Shown one piece after another: positions 2,646-13,697 of a stretch of 28,201 bases of DNA. A program made the position numbers and the translations under genes. The notes beneath the pieces are model-generated. The model searched no databases and was not told where the DNA came from. It saw only the letters and a list, made by a program, of their open reading frames with translations. The stretch spans positions 1-28,201 of the forward strand of contig JBGAGQ010000077.1 in assembly GCA_044226625.1 (NCBI GenBank), read 5' to 3'. The DNA comes from Thermoanaerobaculia bacterium. Its GTDB lineage: Bacteria; Acidobacteriota; Thermoanaerobaculia; Multivoradales; UBA5704. The first letter of the stretch is position 1; every line of letters starts with the position of its first letter.

Positions 2646-5390
2646 ATGTTGAGGTTGTCGCGACACCGTAGGACCTTGGCACGCTTCGCAGCCGCCCTGC
2701 TGCTCGTCGTGGGCGCCGGAGGCACCCTGTTCGCGCAGGGCAAGACCACCAGCGCGCTCAACGGCCGCATCGTCGGAGAGGACGGCGCCGCGCTGCCCGG
2801 CGTGACCGTCGAGATCTCGAGCCCCGCCCTGATCGGCGGCGCCCGGGTCGTCACGACCGACAACGACGGACGGTTCCGCTTCCCCGAGATCGCCCCCGGA
2901 ACCTACACCGTCTCGGCCGCGCTCGACGGCTTTCAGAGCGTGCGCCGCGAAGGGGTCGTCCTCGCGCTCGGCCGGACGACCGAGCTGCCGATCAAGCTCG
3001 GCTTGAAGGCGCTCGAAGAAACGCTGGTCGTCGTGGGCGAGGCGCCGACGATCGACGTCCAGAGCTCGGAGACGAGCACCAACCTTCCCGCGACGTACCT
3101 CGAGAACATCCCGGCCAGCCGCTTCCAGGTCGACGTGATCAACCTGGCGCCCGGGATCAACAACGACTCGGCGTTCGGCGGCGGCGGCTCCTCGGCCAAC
3201 GCTTACCAGCTCGACGGCGTCGACGTTTCGGACCCGGAGGGCGGCACCGCCTGGGCGTTCGTCAACTTCAACATCGTCGAGGAGGCGCAGCTGGTCGGCC
3301 TGGGCGCCCCGGCCGAGTACGGCGGCTTCACCGGCGTGGTGTTCAACAGCGTCACGAAGAGCGGCGGAAACAAGGTCAAGGGAAGCTTCGAGACCTACTT
3401 CACCAACGATTCGCTCACCGGGAACAACTCGGACATCGCGGGCATCGCCCCGACGACCAAGAAGTCGTACGACACCAACCTGCAGTGGGGCGGTCCGCTC
3501 AAGAAGGACAAGCTCTGGTACTTCCTTTCGGGCCAGTACGTCGCCGACGACACGACCGACGGCGGGCCCTTGCGCACCGAGCGCGATCCGCGCGTCTTCG
3601 GCAAACTGTCGTACGCGCCGAGCGAGTCGCTGAGCATCGACGCGTGGACCGAATGGGACCGCTTCGACGTTACGGGCCGCGGCGGCGACGCCGTCACCCC
3701 GCTCGAAGCGACGGTGACCGAGGACGCGCCCGAGTACGTCTGGAACGCCTCTGCGCGCAAGGTGCTCTCGTCGGACACGATCCTGTCGTTCGCCTACGGC
3801 GGCTTCACCGGCTACTACTACCTCGATCCGAACGAGGGGTACGACATCCCGGGCCGCCTCGACGCCCAAACCGGCCTGTACTCGGCCAACTCGCTGTTTT
3901 TCTTCCTCGCCGATCGCGACCGCCAGCAGGCGAACGCCTCGATCAGCCACCACGCCTCCGACTTCATCAAGGGCGACCACGACTTCAAGTTCGGCATGGA
4001 GATCGAGCGATCCACGGTACGCAACCGCTACGGCTATCCGACCGGCGTCTGGTTCTACGACAACTACTACACGGCCGACGATCCGGGCACCGAAGCCTAC
4101 GATCCGGTCCCGTATTCGATCGGCTATTACGGCGGCAACTACGACGTCCACGCGACGAACAAGCGGCTGTCGGCCTACGCGCAGGACACCTGGCGGATCG
4201 GACCGAACCTGACGATCAACCCGGGCGTCCGCATCGACCTGAACCGCGGCGACGTGAGCAACGGCGAGGTCTTCTCGACCAATCCGATCGCGCCGCGCCT
4301 CGGCATCGCCTGGGACGTCGCCGGCAACGGCAAGAACCTGATCAAGGCGCACTACGGCCGGTATTACGAGGCGCTGTTCGGCTCCTATTACTACTGGGTC
4401 GACCCGAACGCGTTCCACGGCGTCGAGCAGCGGCGCGTCTTCCCGAGCGGCTACAACGATCTCTTCGGTGAAACCGCGGGGGCGAGGTACGCGATCGACA
4501 AGAACCTCAAACACCCCTATCTCGATCAGTTCCTGCTCGGCTACGACCGCGAGCTCCGGCCCGGGCTCACGCTCTCGACCTCGCTGGTCTATCGAGAGAA
4601 CAAGAACTTCATCGAGACGGTGAGCCGCGACGGGGTGTTCGAGCCGGTGACCGGATTCGTCGGCGTACGCGACCCGGCGACCGGCCGGCGCGTCAGCACG
4701 GGGCAGCAGGTGACGCTCTACAACTACCTGAACGCGGCCGACGACGTGTTGATCGTCACCAACCCCAAGGGGCTCGAACGGACCTACAAGGGGGCGACGA
4801 TCACGCTCACCCGCCGGCTGCGCGACAACTGGCAGATGCTCGCGTCCTACGTCTACTCGAAGTCCGAAGGGACGATCGACAACGTGAGCTTCTCGAGCTC
4901 CGGAGGCGGCAACGGAGGTCCCGGCTCGTTCCTCGACACGCCGAACTCGCTGGTCAACGCCAAGGGTCACCTCACCAACGACAACACCCACCAGGTGAAG
5001 ATCCAGGGCACCTACCAGATTCCGAAATGGAATCTGTCGCTCTCGGGCAACTACACCTACCTGACGGGAACCTCCTACACCCTGCGGAGCAACTGCCTGC
5101 TGCTCGATCCGAACTCGAACAGCTGCTTCCGTTTCGAGCAGGGCGCAATTCGCTTCTTCGGCGAGGCGCGCGGCAGCCGGCGCTTGCCGGCGCGCAACGA
5201 GGTCGACCTGCGGGCCGAGTGGCAGCCCAAGATCGGCGGCGACCGCCTCGGCATCATCCTCGACGTCTTCAACGCGACCAACCAGGGCCGCCCGGAGACG
5301 ATCGAGACCCGCGACGGCTCGACCTTCGGCGATCCCCTCACCTACAACGCCCCCCGGCAGTACCGGCTCGGCTTCCGGTACGTCTTCTAG
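2646..5390 (+). CDS. TonB-dependent outer-membrane receptor, Oar/OmpA-related type with N-terminal carboxypeptidase-regulatory-like domain
   Basis: Signal peptide (LLLVVGAGGTLFAQ), GAALPGVTV..TDNDGRFRF...PGTYTV domain, plug (NAYQLDGVD, AEYGGFTG), GGPLKKDKLWYF, AYAQDTW, PRLGIAWD, C-terminal PRQYRLGFRYVF. RBS GAGGAGG at 2633-2639. Confidence 0.93.
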   Translation: MLRLSRHRRTLARFAAALLLVVGAGGTLFAQGKTTSALNGRIVGEDGAALPGVTVEISSPALIGGARVVTTDNDGRFRFPEIAPGTYTVSAALDGFQSVRREGVVLALGRTTELPIKLGLKALEETLVVVGEAPTIDVQSSETSTNLPATYLENIPASRFQVDVINLAPGINNDSAFGGGGSSANAYQLDGVDVSDPEGGTAWAFVNFNIVEEAQLVGLGAPAEYGGFTGVVFNSVTKSGGNKVKGSFETYFTNDSLTGNNSDIAGIAPTTKKSYDTNLQWGGPLKKDKLWYFLSGQYVADDTTDGGPLRTERDPRVFGKLSYAPSESLSIDAWTEWDRFDVTGRGGDAVTPLEATVTEDAPEYVWNASARKVLSSDTILSFAYGGFTGYYYLDPNEGYDIPGRLDAQTGLYSANSLFFFLADRDRQQANASISHHASDFIKGDHDFKFGMEIERSTVRNRYGYPTGVWFYDNYYTADDPGTEAYDPVPYSIGYYGGNYDVHATNKRLSAYAQDTWRIGPNLTINPGVRIDLNRGDVSNGEVFSTNPIAPRLGIAWDVAGNGKNLIKAHYGRYYEALFGSYYYWVDPNAFHGVEQRRVFPSGYNDLFGETAGARYAIDKNLKHPYLDQFLLGYDRELRPGLTLSTSLVYRENKNFIETVSRDGVFEPVTGFVGVRDPATGRRVSTGQQVTLYNYLNAADDVLIVTNPKGLERTYKGATITLTRRLRDNWQMLASYVYSKSEGTIDNVSFSSSGGGNGGPGSFLDTPNSLVNAKGHLTNDNTHQVKIQGTYQIPKWNLSLSGNYTYLTGTSYTLRSNCLLLDPNSNSCFRFEQGAIRFFGEARGSRRLPARNEVDLRAEWQPKIGGDRLGIILDVFNATNQGRPETIETRDGSTFGDPLTYNAPRQYRLGFRYVF

Positions 5391-7756: not shown

Positions 7757-8593
7757 CTAACTTGAGGTTCGAGCGAGCCCGTAATAACGCCGCTCGCCGT
7801 CCGAGAGGAGCGTCTCCGCCCGATATCCCGCGGCCAGGTAGAACTGGAACGCGCGGCGGGTCGAGGCGCGAAACGCGACGGCGCGGTCGAGGTCGACGGC
7901 CTTGAGATCTTGGACCGAGCGCGGGGCCTCGACCCGGACGAACGGCGCCTCGGGAAGCGGCGCGTCCAGGTCCTCCGGGGCCACGATCGGCGATCCGGCG
8001 AAGCGGTTCGGAGACTCCGGAGCCCTCGCGGCGGCAGCCCTCACCGCGCGCTCGGAAGTGAGCTCCCAACGCACGATGAAGCGATCGGTGCCGATCCCCT
8101 CGGCGAGGTCCGAGCCCTCTTCCCCGGCGTACATCTCCTCGACGTAGCTCTCGATGCCCGCCCCGAGCCGATCGAGGTTCAGGTGAGCGTTGCGCGTCTC
8201 CAGCGGGTCGAACGTCCAGCGGACGATGTCGACCCCGTTCGCGAGCAGCAGCTCCCGCTGGTGCCGTTTGAGGCGAACCCCGAGACCCCGGTCGCGCGCG
8301 TCGGCGACGACCGCGAGCATGTGCGACCAGTGCGCCGGGCGGCCGGCGACCACCCCGGAGAGGCCGAACAGGAAACCGAGCATCCGGCCGGCAGGGTCGA
8401 ACGCCCCGAGGGCGAGGCCGCCGACCTTCTGGCTCACCTTGAGCAGGCTCGCGGGGACCAGGTCGCTGAAATGCGCACCCCAGGTCGCGCGTTGAAGCTC
8501 GACACAGGCATGGAAATCGTCCACCGATTCCATGGGGCGGAGGACGATCCCGTCATCCCCAGATGACGAGGTCTTCGAATCCGATTCGGACAT
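7757..8593 (-). CDS. GNAT acyltransferase, probable succinyl-CoA:D-amino acid N-succinyltransferase type
   Basis: HWSHMLAV...RDRGLGVRLKRHQRE...WTFDPLETRNAHLN..RLGA....Y...MY.....TDRF, the family typically encoded upstream of NSAR/OSBS genes. Start ATG 8593 assumed. Confidence 0.85.
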   Translation of the reverse strand: MSESDSKTSSSGDDGIVLRPMESVDDFHACVELQRATWGAHFSDLVPASLLKVSQKVGGLALGAFDPAGRMLGFLFGLSGVVAGRPAHWSHMLAVVADARDRGLGVRLKRHQRELLLANGVDIVRWTFDPLETRNAHLNLDRLGAGIESYVEEMYAGEEGSDLAEGIGTDRFIVRWELTSERAVRAAAARAPESPNRFAGSPIVAPEDLDAPLPEAPFVRVEAPRSVQDLKAVDLDRAVAFRASTRRAFQFYLAAGYRAETLLSDGERRYYGLARTSS

Positions 8594-8669
8594 TGGCGAC
8601 AATCCTGACACACCCGGACGGGGCCGCCCCACTCCCCCCGGCCGTCGAACGAGACCGCGGTTCGTCCCC

Positions 8670-10388
8670 TTGATCGCCGACCCCACGCCCAAGACCCCAC
8701 CCGCCGCGAGCCGCGATCCGCGGCGTTACCGGAAGCTCCGCCGGTTCGTCCTGCGCACGTTTCTCCACGCGGTCTGGTGGGACGTGATCCTCGCCTTGCC
8801 TCCCCTTGCGCCGCTGCGGCGCCCGCCCGCCGAGCGGTGGCTGGTCGTCGCCCGCCGGTATCGCGCGCTCGCCGCCGAGATGGGGGGCGTGCTGATCAAG
8901 ATCGGCCAGTTCCTGAGCACCCGGGTCGACATCCTGCCGGCGGCGATCGCCCGCGAGCTGGCCGGCCTTCAAGACGAGGTGCCGCCCGCACCGTTCGCCG
9001 CGATCGAGCGCCGGATCGCCGAGGAGTTTCCCGCCGGCTCGCCGTTCGCCGAGGTCGACTCGGCCGTGCTCGGAGCCGCGTCGCTCGCCCAGGTCCACCC
9101 GGCCCGGCTGCTCGACGGCCGCGAGGCGGTGGTCAAGGTGCTCCGCCCGGGAATCGAAGTCCTGGTCGAGACGGACCTCGCGGCCCTCGAGCTCGCGGTC
9201 CGCCTGCTCCACGTGTCGCGGAAGATCCGCCGCCGGGTCGACCTCGAGCGGCTCGCCGAGGAGATCACCTCGACCACCCGGGCGGAGCTCGATCTAGGCG
9301 CCGAGGCGGACAACGCCGAGCGCTTCGCCGAGCTGTTCGCCGACGACCCGGGAATCGCCGCGCCGAAGGTCTACCGGGAGGCCTCCTCCCGCCGGGTGCT
9401 CGCGGCGGAGAACGTCACCGCGATCAAGGTGAACGACCTCGCCGCGTTGGCCGCCGCTGGGATCGATCCGGCCGCCGTGGCGCGGCGGCTGTTCCGCGCG
9501 ACGATGCGGCAGATCTTCGAGCTGTCGTTCGTCCACGCCGATCCCCACCCCGGCAACCTGTTCGTTCGGCCCCTGGCCCCGGGAGAGGATGGCGACAGCG
9601 AGGACGGGGCGCCCTCCGAGACCGGCACGGGCGCGCCGTTCGCGATCGTCTACGTCGATTTCGGCATGATGGCGACCGTGCCGCCCCACTTGCGCGGCGC
9701 GCTCCGGGAGTATGCGATCGCCCTCGGCACGCGGGACGCGGCGCGCCTCGTCCAGGCCTACTCGGCCGCCGGGGTGCTGCTGCCCGGGGCCGACCTCGAG
9801 CGGTTGGAAGAGGTCCACGCCGAGCTGTTCGCCCGGTTCTGGGGGGTGAGCGTCGGCAAGATCCGGGACGTCGCGATGTCCGAAGCCCGGTATTTTCTGC
9901 GGAAGTATCGCGACCTCCTGTATGAAATGCCGTTTCAGGTGCAGGTCGAGCTGCTGTTCGTCTCGCGCGCCGTCGGGTTGCTGGCCGGGCTTGCGACCGG
10001 GCTCGACCCGGAGTTCGATCCCTGGGCCGAGGCGATGCCGTTCGCCGATCGGATCGCCCGGGAGGAGGTCTCGCGCGGCCTTTCGGCCCGGCTCGCCGAT
10101 CTGGCGGGCGACGCCCGGGCACTGCTCGGCCTCCCCCGCCGCCTGGACACGGTCCTCGCGCGCGCCGAGAGGGGCGCCCTCCAGGTCCGCCTGGAGCCGG
10201 GCCGCGAGGCGCGGCGGATCGCGATCCGGATGGAAAAGTCGCTGCAGCGCCTCTCCTGGGCCGTGCTCGCCGGCAGCCTGGCGGTCGCGGCGGCGCTGCT
10301 CCGAGCCGAAGGGGTCCTCTGGGCGGCGATCCCAGGAACGCTGTCGGCCGCCTTCCTGGTCCGATTCCTGCTCGCGCGGAAGGGATGA
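8670..10388 (+). CDS. UbiB/AarF/ABC1 atypical kinase family protein
   Basis: GGVLIKIGQFLSTRVDILP, LQDEVP, AASLAQVH, VVKVLRPG, HADPHPGN, DFGM, C-terminal TM helices. Start uncertain: TTG 8670 chosen because 8532 would overlap the divergent GNAT. Confidence 0.92.
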   Translation: MIADPTPKTPPAASRDPRRYRKLRRFVLRTFLHAVWWDVILALPPLAPLRRPPAERWLVVARRYRALAAEMGGVLIKIGQFLSTRVDILPAAIARELAGLQDEVPPAPFAAIERRIAEEFPAGSPFAEVDSAVLGAASLAQVHPARLLDGREAVVKVLRPGIEVLVETDLAALELAVRLLHVSRKIRRRVDLERLAEEITSTTRAELDLGAEADNAERFAELFADDPGIAAPKVYREASSRRVLAAENVTAIKVNDLAALAAAGIDPAAVARRLFRATMRQIFELSFVHADPHPGNLFVRPLAPGEDGDSEDGAPSETGTGAPFAIVYVDFGMMATVPPHLRGALREYAIALGTRDAARLVQAYSAAGVLLPGADLERLEEVHAELFARFWGVSVGKIRDVAMSEARYFLRKYRDLLYEMPFQVQVELLFVSRAVGLLAGLATGLDPEFDPWAEAMPFADRIAREEVSRGLSARLADLAGDARALLGLPRRLDTVLARAERGALQVRLEPGREARRIAIRMEKSLQRLSWAVLAGSLAVAAALLRAEGVLWAAIPGTLSAAFLVRFLLARKG

Positions 10389-10417
10389 CCACCTTCTCGA
10401 GAGCCGCGGAAAGCACC

Positions 10418-10433
10418 TGGCACACCGCTTGCT
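10418..10433 (+). promoter_or_regulatory. sigma54 (RpoN) -24/-12 promoter
   Basis: TGGCAC-ACCGC-TTGCT is an exact match to TGGCAC-N5-TTGCW, located in intergenic DNA. Confidence 0.8.
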
Positions 10434-10443
10434 ACTCTAGGAG

Positions 10444-10640
10444 GGCAGTCAACGAGATATCCCACGGGGAAGGAACCGACCTACCAACAAAATCCCACCT
10501 CACATCGAGATCTTCCGATCTCACCCCGTCACCAAATCCTCCGAATTCCCCTTGTCTACAGGGGTGAAGCCAAAAATCCCACCGGAGAGACGGAACCAAC
10601 CCCGTATCGACCCCCCTCTCGAGGGGGGTCTTCTCGTTTC
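10444..10640 (+). ncRNA. candidate sigma54-dependent small RNA (~195 nt)
   Basis: Lies between the sigma54 promoter and an intrinsic terminator, between two convergent genes, with no credible ORF. Has internal hairpins and repeated CCAA..AAUCC(C/U)(A)CC motifs. Confidence 0.6.
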
Positions 10641-10641
10641 T
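10609..10641 (+). terminator. intrinsic terminator
   Basis: GACCCCCCTC-TC-GAGGGGGGTC perfect inverted repeat followed by TTCTCGTTTCT. Confidence 0.8.
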
Positions 10642-10877
10642 GGGCTCCTCGCTTCCGACCCGCCTCTCGAACCTTCCGATCCGATTGAATCCAAACGGCA
10701 TCTCGGCGCACTTCGAAGGTCGTCCCAGCCCTCCCAGCCCCAAATCCTTCCGCCGCCGCCCTCGTGTGACAGCCGTGTGACGGACCTGACACCGCCTCGC
10801 GCGGGGCGATTCGGGTGTCTTTCTGGCGCGCCGATACGACCTGCCGGTTTGGCCGGCCGCCATTTTGTGGCACCTGC

Positions 10878-13463
10878 TCAACGACGAATGGACAATCGCT
10901 CCGCCAGCCGGACGATTCGGGCGACCGCATCCGCCCCGGCACGATCTTCCGACCCGAGCTCGGCAACCAGCTCGGCGCGCTCCTCGAGCAGGCGATAGAG
11001 GGCGACCTGGGGCGGCAGGTGATCGAGCGAAAACGGCAGCGCCCCCGCCAGATCGAGCAGCGCGTCCAGCCGAACCCCCGCGGCGGCGTCGAGCGGATCG
11101 CGGCGGAGCCGTTCGGCGAGGCCCGTCATCGCCGGCTCGAGCAGATAGCGCACCCCTTCGCGGTCGAGGGACAACCCCCAGTCGCGCACTTCGACCAGGC
11201 GACGGCGTATTTCGGCAAGATCGCTCATGGGATCGCGCAGCGCGTGCTTCAAGTCGGCATGAATTGCCATCTCGGCCGCGCTGCGCAACGGGCCCGGCAA
11301 GGCGAGCCCGACGGCGCCCAGCCGGCGCATCAACGGCGCGTGGCGCTCGAACAGCTCCCGCCCGCGCGCCTCGACCTCCTCGATCGTTCCGCGGAGGATC
11401 CGTTCGAGCAGGCGCTCCCGGTCGTCGCCGAACAAGGCGTCGAGGGCGTGTTGGACCGGAAAATGGCGGTCGAGCCAACGGACCACCCGCGCCGGATCGG
11501 CCAGGCGGAGCGCCTCTTCGACCTCCTCGATCTCGCCAGGGGTCGGATCGAGCCCGAGCGCCGGACCGGAGCGGGCCCGCACCCCCACCTGGACGTTCGG
11601 GTCGCCCCAAGCGAACGCGGCGTAGGTGAAACCGCCTTGCTCGCCCGTGATCTCCGAGGTGACGTCGACCTCCGCGAGCAGGAGCTTCAGGGGGCCGCCG
11701 GTCGCCCGCCGAAGCGTGCGCCGCGCCACGGCGAACGAGTAGATCCGTCCCGCCTCGATCCCCTCCTCGGGCTCCCGGTCGGTTCGGTCCGTGCGGTCGG
11801 ACGGGCCGGCGAAGAGGGCGGCGATCGCGTCGTGGGCGGCCACCGCCGAGAGCGCCACGCGCGCCGGCTTGACCGAGGCGAAGTAGATCGCCCGGCCGTC
11901 GCCGAACTGCGGCTCGTTGCTCCGCGCCGCGGCCAGGGTCTCCAGGAACGGGGACTCGAGCGACTCGCCGAACAGCTCCTCGGCGAGCTCGATCGCCCGC
12001 GCCGCATGGAGCAGCACCTGCCGCGTCTCGATCCCCGCGAGGTCGCTGAAGAACCAGCCGCAGCTGGTGAACATTGCCATCGCCTGCCGCGACAGCTCGA
12101 GGAGCTTCCGCGCCCCGATCCGCTCGGCCGGGCCGAGCGGCCGGCGCGCCTCGCGGGCGAGGAACCGTTCGAGCGTCGCCTCCGACCGGTCGAGCACGAC
12201 CTCGACATAGCGGTCGCGCGCCCCCCAGGGATCGTGGAAAATCTCGGCGCCCGCGCGCTCGAAACGCGAGGCGAGCCGGGCGGCCAGCTCGTCGAGCGCC
12301 CGCCGGAGCGGCGCGCGCCACGCCTGGCTCCACCCCGGGCCGCCGCCCGCATTGCAGCCGCAGTCCGAGCGCCAGCGCTCGATGCCGTGCGCGCAGCTCC
12401 AAGAGGTGCCCGGCGCGATCTCGACCTGCCATTCCGGCGGGTGGCGCGCCAGAAACTCTCCGTACGAGACGACTCGAGCGAGCCCGTGCTCCTCCAGCCG
12501 GAGGAGCGCGGCGGCGAGCGCCATCTCGCCGTGCCGGTGATGGTGGCCGTAGCTCTCGCCGTCCGTCGCGACGTGGACCAGCCGAGCCCCCTCGCGCGCG
12601 GGAAACGCCCCGGCGAGCCGCGCCGCGAAGCGGTCGCCGCTATGAAGCAGCCCCTCGAACGCGATCGAGCGGGAGAGCGGGCCGTCATAGAAGAAGATCG
12701 CGATCTCGCGGCCGGACTGCAGTCGCGCCAGGTAGGCGCGGGAGGGATCGATCGAGCCCCCCGGCACCTCGCGCCAGGGCGTTTCCTCCCGCATACCCGA
12801 CGCGACGAGCGGCCTCACCCGCGCGGCTTGATGGGGCGCGAGGATCGTGAACCGGATCCCCTGCTCGGCGAGCGCCTCCAGCGTCGGGACGTCGACCGCC
12901 GTCTCCGGCAGCCACATCCCCTCGGGGGCGCGGCCGAAGCGGTGGCGGAAGTCGGCGATCCCCCAGAGCACCTGGGTCCGCCGATCGCGGTCGTTCGCGA
13001 GCGGCAGGATCAGGTGCCCGTAGGCTTGGGCGATCGCCGAGCCGTGCCCGCAACGCTCCAGGCTCTTGCGGTCGGCGGCGAGGAGCGCGGCATAGGTCTC
13101 CGGATCGGCGCGCTCCATCCAGGAGAGGAGCGTCGGACCGAAGTTGAACGAGATCCGCGCGTAGTTGTCGACCAGCCGCACGAGCCGGCCGCGGTCGTCG
13201 AGCACCCGCGCCCGCGCGTTCGTCGCGTAACATTCGGCGCCGATCCGCTCGTTCCAGTCGTGATACGGCCGCGCCGAGGGTTGCCGCTCGATCGCCTCCA
13301 GCCAGGGGTTCTCCCGCGGCGGTTGGTAGAAGTGCCCGTGGATGCAGACGAACCGCTCCCCGGCGGGCGCCGTCGCGCGCGCTTCTCCCGGTCCCGGTCG
13401 TTCCGCCCCCCTCGGGGCCGTATCGAGGGTCTCCGTCCCACCGCTCGCAGCTCGGTTCCGCAC
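10878..13463 (-). CDS. glycoside hydrolase family 57 protein with DUF3536 C-terminal domain
   Basis: CIHGHFYQPPRENPW, GMWLPETAVD (nucleophile Glu), ATDGESYGHH (acid/base Asp), SWSCAHGIERW, MFTSCGWFF. Start uncertain (GTG 13463 used; ORF is open to 13619). Confidence 0.92.
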   Translation of the reverse strand: MRNRAASGGTETLDTAPRGAERPGPGEARATAPAGERFVCIHGHFYQPPRENPWLEAIERQPSARPYHDWNERIGAECYATNARARVLDDRGRLVRLVDNYARISFNFGPTLLSWMERADPETYAALLAADRKSLERCGHGSAIAQAYGHLILPLANDRDRRTQVLWGIADFRHRFGRAPEGMWLPETAVDVPTLEALAEQGIRFTILAPHQAARVRPLVASGMREETPWREVPGGSIDPSRAYLARLQSGREIAIFFYDGPLSRSIAFEGLLHSGDRFAARLAGAFPAREGARLVHVATDGESYGHHHRHGEMALAAALLRLEEHGLARVVSYGEFLARHPPEWQVEIAPGTSWSCAHGIERWRSDCGCNAGGGPGWSQAWRAPLRRALDELAARLASRFERAGAEIFHDPWGARDRYVEVVLDRSEATLERFLAREARRPLGPAERIGARKLLELSRQAMAMFTSCGWFFSDLAGIETRQVLLHAARAIELAEELFGESLESPFLETLAAARSNEPQFGDGRAIYFASVKPARVALSAVAAHDAIAALFAGPSDRTDRTDREPEEGIEAGRIYSFAVARRTLRRATGGPLKLLLAEVDVTSEITGEQGGFTYAAFAWGDPNVQVGVRARSGPALGLDPTPGEIEEVEEALRLADPARVVRWLDRHFPVQHALDALFGDDRERLLERILRGTIEEVEARGRELFERHAPLMRRLGAVGLALPGPLRSAAEMAIHADLKHALRDPMSDLAEIRRRLVEVRDWGLSLDREGVRYLLEPAMTGLAERLRRDPLDAAAGVRLDALLDLAGALPFSLDHLPPQVALYRLLEERAELVAELGSEDRAGADAVARIVRLAERLSIRR

Positions 13464-13697
13464 CCGTCGCGTCTCTCCCGGCCGGATCCTCCCGATCGGA
13501 GGGTCCGATCGGCGCCCGGCGCGGCGAGACGATAGCGCAGACCGGCCTGGCGACCGGACGACGCGATCGCCGAATCTGACGCGACTCCGAGGCGAATTCG
13601 ATCCCTGCGGGCGTCTCACCCCTCACGGGTGCTTTTCTCGGCCGTGCTAGCCTGCCGCCTCCCCTGACGAAACCGACGACCACTGGATGGAGACGGG

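Follow-up and report, generated by a model that had tools for sequence, protein, structure and literature searches.

The window analyzed here, a 28,201-nt stretch of DNA from a Thermoanaerobaculia bacterium (Acidobacteriota), carries an ABC1/UbiB-type kinase gene on its + strand (ubiB, 8532–10388; Pfam PF03109, 1.4e-59) and, downstream of it, a convergent gene with GH57 and DUF3536 domains (10878–13619, − strand; Pfam). The gap between these genes contains the sequence of a sigma-54 promoter with the −24 element TGGCAC and the −12 element TTGCT (TGGCAC-ACCGC-TTGCT in full, 10418–10433, + strand). Based on the spacing from the −12 GC, the transcription start is predicted at 10444–10447. An intrinsic terminator at 10609–10641 (+ strand) consists of a 9-bp stem (10609–10630) with seven G-C pairs and a T-rich tail. 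The small RNA gene of ~195–198 nt (10444–10641, + strand) is delineated by covariance model R1, the predicted fold, and RNA-library contigs (discussed below). A preliminary description, made from the sequence, had placed a promoter, two hairpins, three linkers rich in A and C (10483, 10531, and 10569), and a terminator in this gap, and all of them were recovered at the same positions. Its statement that no open reading frame is present stands only in part, because mechanical open reading frames do cross the gap (e.g., 10385–10567 on the + strand, 60 amino acids, and 10432–12432 on the − strand), but every reading frame is broken by one-base insertions or deletions among the eight copies from the genus. 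The source genome has one copy of the element, which is a non-coding unit with its own terminator. The gap between the ubiB and GH57 genes almost certainly harbors a real RNA gene.

None of the 4227 families of Rfam 15 reached its gathering score anywhere in the window, in agreement with the proposal that the RNA is uncatalogued. At E-values up to 10, mir-296, Methylosinus-1, and whalefall-1 (twice) appeared with 11–15 bits, which is far below the cut-offs and was regarded as noise. An identity with 6S RNA was also rejected because the RF00013 match of this genome is located elsewhere (C120:73353–73541, 51 bits). In the accessible parts of the literature, we found no small RNA of this lineage described, although a candidate listed in a supplement may have escaped us.

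The pattern TGGCACN5TTGCW has one match in the window, compared with 0.00 expected from 100 shuffles, and only nine matches in the whole 6.6-Mb genome when both strands are counted. The preliminary description had made its proposal dependent on the presence of rpoN, and this gene was found in the source genome (PF04552, 222.9 bits, G000:C76). It was also detected in 146 of the 151 genomes sampled from the order; the order-wide tallies for the RNA, rpoN, Hfq, and KhpA (n = 151) each count an unpublished genome, G216, as one of the 151, and none of its sequence was included. All of the genus copies (8/8) retain a perfect promoter. In the genus, the spacer separating the −12 element from the RNA shows no constraint, and sequence conservation sets in again at ~10446, which fits a start at 10444–10447. 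A CA dinucleotide is conserved at positions 5–6 of the covariance model.

The 198-nt RNA folds at −65.8 kcal/mol, compared with −52.4 ± 4.3 kcal/mol for shuffled sequences (z = −3.1; 0/200 as good). The order-wide structure consists of a 12-bp closing helix (P1), a sequence-variable hairpin (P2), and a nearly invariant hairpin (P3), which are connected by three joiners. P1 is formed by the 5′ strand GGGGAAGGAACC (10466–10477) and its partner, the 3′ strand GGAACCAACCCC (10592–10603), whose pairing is supported by covariation across the family. Family-wide, the two strands are GGGGGAGGUUCC and GGAACCUCCCCC, and P1 of the source genus has four A·A mismatches at the positions where the family has U-A pairs. 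Because these U-A pairs became A·A mismatches, the two strands resemble a direct repeat in the source genus. What had been taken for a duplicated module (10459–10481 and 10576–10602) is therefore not a duplication but the 5′ and 3′ strands of P1. Joiner J1/2 (10478–10506) carries the boxes CCUACC (10480) and CCCACC (10494), and it is followed by P2 (GAGATC-TTCC-GATCTC, 10507–10522), which is supported by the sequence and by covariation. Joiner J2/3 (10523–10547) contains UCCUCC, which the alignments show in the source genus only. P3 (CCCCT..AGGGG, 10548–10564) is the most conserved part of the RNA, as judged from pairing and conservation. Joiner J3/1 (10565–10591) carries a third box, CCCACC (10578). 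The boxes in J1/2 and J3/1 are predicted to be open.

In 111 distinct sequences, standard pairs occupy 94.5% of the cells compared with 88.3% after shuffling, double changes occur in 22 of the 23 pairs of the three helices, and the covariation score is 0.245 compared with 0.138 for shuffled data (0/500 reach it) and at most 0.092 for slid partners; given that the sequences share ancestry and were aligned by fitting them to the model, the figures speak for the fold but are not to be read as probabilities. P2 is paired in 96.8% of the cells with double changes in 6/6 pairs, and P3 is paired in 99.6%. Four P1 pairs that are outside the model structure are still paired in 82–92% of the cells. An inner extension of P1, which RNAalifold proposed from a genus-dominated alignment, was discarded as poorly supported (49–79% paired). 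P3 and its 3′ flank (CCCCU..AGGGGU-A-A-CC) are at least 90% conserved, and CCTACCAA in J1/2 is invariant in 13/13 family-level copies.

Within the genus, conservation extends only from ~10415 to ~10644, which is exactly from the promoter to the terminator. By DNA search, the element was recovered from all seven further genomes of the genus (7/7) and from two additional genera. A scan of 185,579 species genomes for the exact three-block pattern gave 14 places, 12 of which are real (nine named as Thermoanaerobaculia or Thermoanaerobaculaceae, two as Acidobacteriota, and one as Holophagales); the other two were chance matches inside coding sequence. Covariance model R1 was built from 13 distinct copies with the promoter and terminator left out. 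It matches the source window at 10442–10614 with 187.6 bits and has matches in 90/92 genomes of the family and in 99/151 genomes sampled from the order, covering 10 of 12 families. The RNA is rare or absent in family f7 (2/21), family f8 (0/21), and family f12 (0/1). The profiles of rpoN (146/151), Hfq (122/151), and KhpA (145/151) do not explain its absence from f7 and f8. The broader model R2 gave no match in 114 genomes from other orders of the class or in the 147 genomes of a phylum sample that do not belong to this order. The RNA gene was strongly supported as ancestral to one order of Thermoanaerobaculia-type Acidobacteriota. Its copy number is one in the source genus (8/8), two in 40/41 genomes of g5, and three in 11/11 genomes of g7, and multiple copies are arranged in tandem, 250–350 nt apart. 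A crude finder located a hairpin of −10 kcal/mol or lower with a T-rich tail behind at least 79 of the 111 copies.

These 111 copies are the 115 cmsearch matches on 87 loci minus four rows from duplicate loci. GGCA[CT]N5TTGC is present within 75 nt upstream of 100 of them, and GGCA[CT]-N5-NTGC, in which the first T is free, is present upstream of 108. The three copies that lack a match are a degenerate one, a second copy, and one cut at the locus end. Because the covariance model held no promoter columns, the recurrence of the promoter is an independent test. Loci with a divergent upstream gene retain the promoter as well. We consider it very probable that the sigma-54 promoter is functional. 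As a separate observation, GGAAT (usually GGGAAT) precedes the −24 GG by exactly 14 nt in 28 of the 108 promoters, and by 14–16 nt in 34 of them, in several families (loci L035, L064–L068, L074, L079, L094, and others). The equivalent in the window is CGGAAA at ~10407–10413, and two adapter-bounded RNA inserts begin beside it, at 10406. We know of no sigma-54 promoter element at this position.

Taken together, the presence of rpoN, conservation from promoter to terminator, the promoter at 108/111 copies, covariation, the lack of an Rfam match, and RNA contigs support the central proposal of the preliminary description, namely an uncatalogued sigma-54-driven small RNA that represents a new family in a phylum poor in described small RNAs. 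This order-wide small RNA family, absent from Rfam and equipped with a sigma-54 promoter, is real.

The genomic address of the RNA gene was surveyed in 16 loci of ten kb each, drawn from a range of families within the order. The examined core contains dnaA in 12/16 loci, and sppA and/or dnaA in 15/16. Directly downstream and in the same orientation, a Pfam-confirmed mutY was found in 10/16 loci, and a protein with two cNMP-binding domains comes next in 12/16. The exceptions to the dnaA/mutY address are locus L134 and the source genus, both of which lack mutY downstream. In most relatives, the gene occupies, as one to three tandem copies, the interval that separates mutY from the divergent (sppA-)dnaA promoter, and it is strongly supported that the single copy of the source genus has moved behind ubiB. 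In the dnaA-sRNA intergenic regions of loci L138, L141, and L142, we noted DnaA-box pairs (TTTCCACA and TGTGGAAAA) and a conserved extended −10 element of the TGCTATGAT type, which together are situated 70–400 nt from the sigma-54 promoter. The family boxes themselves (CCNRCC, as TCCNACC) were rejected as DnaA boxes because the DnaA box is TCCACA and the true ones are nearer dnaA.

On the other side, the palindrome GCCA-N3-TGGC occurs downstream of the RNA gene in 44/85 loci and upstream in 3/85, and it is followed by a TAGAAT-like −10 hexamer and then by the mutY start. From this arrangement, a separate mutY promoter is predicted immediately after the final sRNA copy. We observed that this promoter is placed ~60–130 nt behind that copy in the 44/85 loci (e.g., L035, L040, and L048), with its −35 element inside a GCCAAnnTGGC palindrome and the TAGAAT-like −10 only ~6 nt before the start codon. 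The mutY mRNA may thus be nearly leaderless. The RNA genes appear as independent units between two putative sigma-70-type promoters beside the replication-initiator gene. A further observation concerns the ~60 nt adjoining the GH57 stop in the window (10813–10872), which are 83–93% conserved in 6/7 genus loci at a variable distance from the sRNA terminator and contain GCCA-N5-TGGC. It could be what is left of the palindrome in the ancestral mutY promoter, or else the terminator of the GH57 gene.

This address bears on the possibility that the RNA is not a trans regulator but another kind of structured RNA, such as a ligand- or protein-scaffolding RNA or a cis-acting leader of mutY. Such a function would fit the near invariance of P3 and its 3′ flank and the position of the gene directly upstream of mutY in the same orientation at the 10/16 Pfam-checked loci. 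However, mutY is missing downstream in the source genus and at L134, the copies end in their own terminators, and the mutY promoter is separate. The 6S RNA of this genome, which scores above its cut-off with 51 bits, is encoded elsewhere, and no Rfam family matches the new RNA. We therefore consider this possibility very improbable.

A sigma-54 (−24/−12) promoter would drive the RNA, and an unlinked enhancer-binding activator would therefore be needed. Neither an activator gene nor an evident upstream activator site was found in the window or in the 16 ten-kb loci. Two recurrent elements were considered as enhancers and rejected. Read on the opposite strand, the upstream ATCATAGCACAG corresponds to an extended −10 element (TGCTATGAT) belonging to the divergent (sppA-)dnaA promoter, and the downstream GCCA-N3-TGGC palindrome forms the −35 region of the separate mutY promoter.

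The RNA family is present in environmental RNA libraries. Fourteen RNA runs contain part of the stretch, with only 0.17–0.25 of the sampled words in X5–X14. In the four best runs (X1–X4), the RNA body was found in contigs at 95–100% identity that span from 10395, 10406, or 10425 to 10582 or 10603; they are Logan contigs from one study, which cannot show the start or the level of a transcript. In X1, 13/15 contigs have at least 99% identity, and X2–X4 have one such contig each. Many contigs are short adapter-bounded inserts, several of which end at 10603. The listed adapter ends have the same orientation (10/10); assuming the usual stranded chemistry, kit, and adapter sequences, this would place the RNA on the + strand. 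The right ends of the contigs stop just before the terminator hairpin. The flanks (9900–10383 and 10648–11200) gave no contigs, but we did not take this as proof of a discrete transcript because missing cover proves nothing.

The left ends of the contigs are 19–49 nt upstream of the predicted start, and the −24 box is included in three of the four runs. Because these contigs start before the predicted +1, at least some molecules do not begin at the sigma-54 site. No terminator-like site was found between the ubiB stop (10388) and 10609, and since ubiB lacks its own terminator, part of the molecules probably originate from ubiB read-through and processing. The concern that the terminator only ends the ubiB-kinase mRNA, which had been raised together with the original proposal, is thus partly justified, in that ubiB has no terminator and contigs cross the promoter. 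In its full form, this explanation regards the RNA of the source genus mainly as a processed product of the ubiB 3′-UTR, to which the sigma-54 promoter adds little. The contig starts at 10395, 10406 (twice, adapter-bounded), and 10425, which lie upstream of or inside the promoter, agree with it. In contrast, the promoter is perfect in all eight genus copies and is kept where the upstream gene is divergent, so that read-through is impossible at such loci. In addition, the contig 10406–10498 of X1 has a depth of 489, compared with 3800–4700 for the contigs from 10469 on, although these depths are crude. We judge it improbable that the RNA is mainly a 3′-UTR product.

The RNA is rich in C (35%; G, 20%), and its joiners are poor in G. 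The sequence CCNRCC occurs 3.56 times per RNA compared with 1.24 times in dinucleotide shuffles, and 87/111 RNAs have three or more; this enrichment is descriptive only because the motif was chosen after viewing the alignment and the sequences are related. Box nucleotides have a predicted probability of being unpaired of 0.79, compared with 0.48 elsewhere, and the value is higher in the boxes in 109/110 RNAs. The two central bases of the box vary, whereas the flanking CC..CC is fixed. The conserved repeated element of the family is thus an exposed CCNRCC box, present ~3.6 times per RNA.

The binding motifs that had been suggested from the single sequence did not hold across the family. The anti-Shine-Dalgarno motif CCUCC is not enriched family-wide (1.32 vs 1.00 per RNA), and the CCUCC of J2/3 is not conserved outside the source genus. 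A-rich motifs of the Hfq type are under-represented, both as ARN triplets (0.38 vs 0.58 per RNA) and as AAnAAnAA (0.02 per RNA vs 0.07 in shuffles). CA motifs show no enrichment across the family. The hint of a CsrA sponge found no support, since CsrA (PF02599) was not found in the 97.9% complete genome; ProQ was also searched for and not found. Hfq is present in the source genome and in 122/151 genomes of the order, and its distribution was compared with that of the RNA. In g25, the RNA occurs in 3/3 genomes and detectable Hfq in 0/3 (completeness of 99, 98, and 91%), and in g18, both are absent from all 19 genomes (0/19), most of which are 97–99% complete. In contrast, family f7 has Hfq in 19/21 genomes and the RNA in 2/21. 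The pattern in g18 and g25 looks like lineage-specific loss of Hfq. KhpA is present in 145/151 genomes of the order, including lineages that lack the RNA, and is therefore uninformative. No candidate box-binding protein was identified among those considered, CsrA and ProQ being undetected and KhpA uninformative.

A conventional base-pairing function was considered, in which the C-rich boxes would be redundant seeds for G-rich mRNA stretches, with or without Hfq, and the RNA would repress or activate several mRNAs in the manner of Qrr or GlmZ. Many known sigma-54 small RNAs work by base pairing. The layout of the gene, with its own promoter, exposed conserved single strands, a terminator with a U-rich tail, and paralogous copies, is typical of such RNAs, and Hfq is available in the source genome and in most of the order (122/151). 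In the source genus, the UCCUCC joiner could be complementary to GGAGG, which peaks at −12 of predicted starts. However, GGYNGG, the complement of the family box, has no peak at ribosome-binding positions, and CCUCC lacks family-wide enrichment; the anti-Shine-Dalgarno reading was rejected for these reasons. When the three joiners were compared with 5462 start windows by duplex prediction, no outlier was obtained: the best non-self duplex had −33.2 kcal/mol, compared with −31.8 to −35.8 kcal/mol for four shuffles. There was also no consistent complementarity to the 5′ regions of dnaA/sppA or mutY (15 loci; median ranks of 0.54 and 0.59, respectively). These pairing tests were based on a single genome or were crude, and their power is low. 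The box centers vary independently, which is a further point against pairing. Overall, base pairing through the boxes seems somewhat unlikely.

We tentatively favor a decoy mechanism over seed pairing because of the four degenerate boxes with variable centers, the covarying scaffold, and the several gene copies, although the decoy mechanism is itself possible rather than probable. The strongly supported part of this explanation is that three long G-poor joiners between P1, P2, and P3 display three to four single-stranded CCNRCC boxes and that the RNA ends at its own intrinsic terminator. As a free-standing regulatory RNA, it would act in trans via the exposed boxes, as a multivalent decoy titrating a partner that recognizes CCNRCC, either an RNA-binding protein or a G-rich RNA. 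A protein partner, if any, would be neither CsrA nor ProQ, and Hfq is improbable as well. How much RNA is made would depend on the signal that turns the activator on. As a whole, the explanation that this is a sigma-54-dependent, free-standing regulatory RNA acting as a decoy is evenly balanced between being right and being wrong in our estimation.

CrcZ, an RNA of ~400 nt, has its own terminator, paralogues, and a repeated single-stranded motif between helices. The new RNA resembles CrcZ, CrcY, and CrcX in its sigma-54 promoter, terminator, paralogues, and displayed repeats, and these RNAs serve as the model for the decoy reading. They are described, in the part of the source available to us, as sigma-54/CbrB-dependent RNAs of Pseudomonadaceae that titrate Hfq (PMC6292655). 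Unlike CrcZ, the new RNA is ~195 nt long, has CCNRCC as its motif with AAnAAnAA under-represented, lacks an Rfam match, and occurs in genomes without detectable Hfq. The Qrr RNAs are approximately half the length of the new RNA. Like it, the Qrr1–5 RNAs of Vibrio are sigma-54-dependent (with LuxO), multi-copy, and terminated, according to a source available in part (PMC10162802). The new RNA differs from them in having no Rfam match, no nearby activator gene, and no conserved single seed. The GlmY/GlmZ pair of Enterobacteriaceae (sigma-54/GlrR) shares the sigma-54 promoters and homologous paralogues, and one member is a protein decoy, as stated in the accessible parts of PMC3045617 and PMC4152352. 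The new RNA differs from this pair in its fold and in its phylum, and Rfam contains no match to it. NrsZ is made of repeated modules. This RNA of Pseudomonas aeruginosa is another sigma-54 (NtrC) small RNA (PMC4253122, seen in part). In the new RNA, the repetition instead consists of 6-nt boxes in one fold and of whole-gene tandem copies with their own promoters, and Rfam gives no match.

Acidobacteriota are among the most abundant bacteria in soils and sediments, and to our knowledge almost nothing is known about post-transcriptional gene regulation in this phylum. The RNA family adds a member to a known class and does not introduce a new principle. It is ready for Rfam, with a 115-copy alignment, a covariation-backed structure, a promoter class, a distribution, and a conserved genomic address, and it flags an output under sigma-54 control that occurs in environmental RNA libraries. 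Should the box motif be a protein-binding site, it would point to an unrecognized global regulator, and if the boxes are seeds, they would open a regulon. A more far-reaching version, in which the RNA is the CsrB/CrcZ equivalent of the whole order of uncultured Acidobacteriota and serves as an abundant sponge under sigma-54 control, its CCNRCC boxes titrating an unrecognized global RNA-binding regulator, is in our view unlikely. If it were true, the ancestral seat of the gene, back-to-back with the dnaA promoter and before mutY, would tie the signal to replication or repair.

Two additional observations concern sigma-54 elsewhere in this genome. The window contains an RtcB RNA ligase gene (1080–2441), which has no perfect sigma-54 promoter upstream; in E. 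coli, rtcBA is under sigma-54/RtcR control. Of the eight remaining perfect sigma-54 promoters in the genome, two (G000:C25:5060, − strand, and G000:C81:213312, + strand) are immediately followed by G+C-rich hairpins instead of an obvious ribosome-binding site, and these may represent further sigma-54 RNAs or attenuators.
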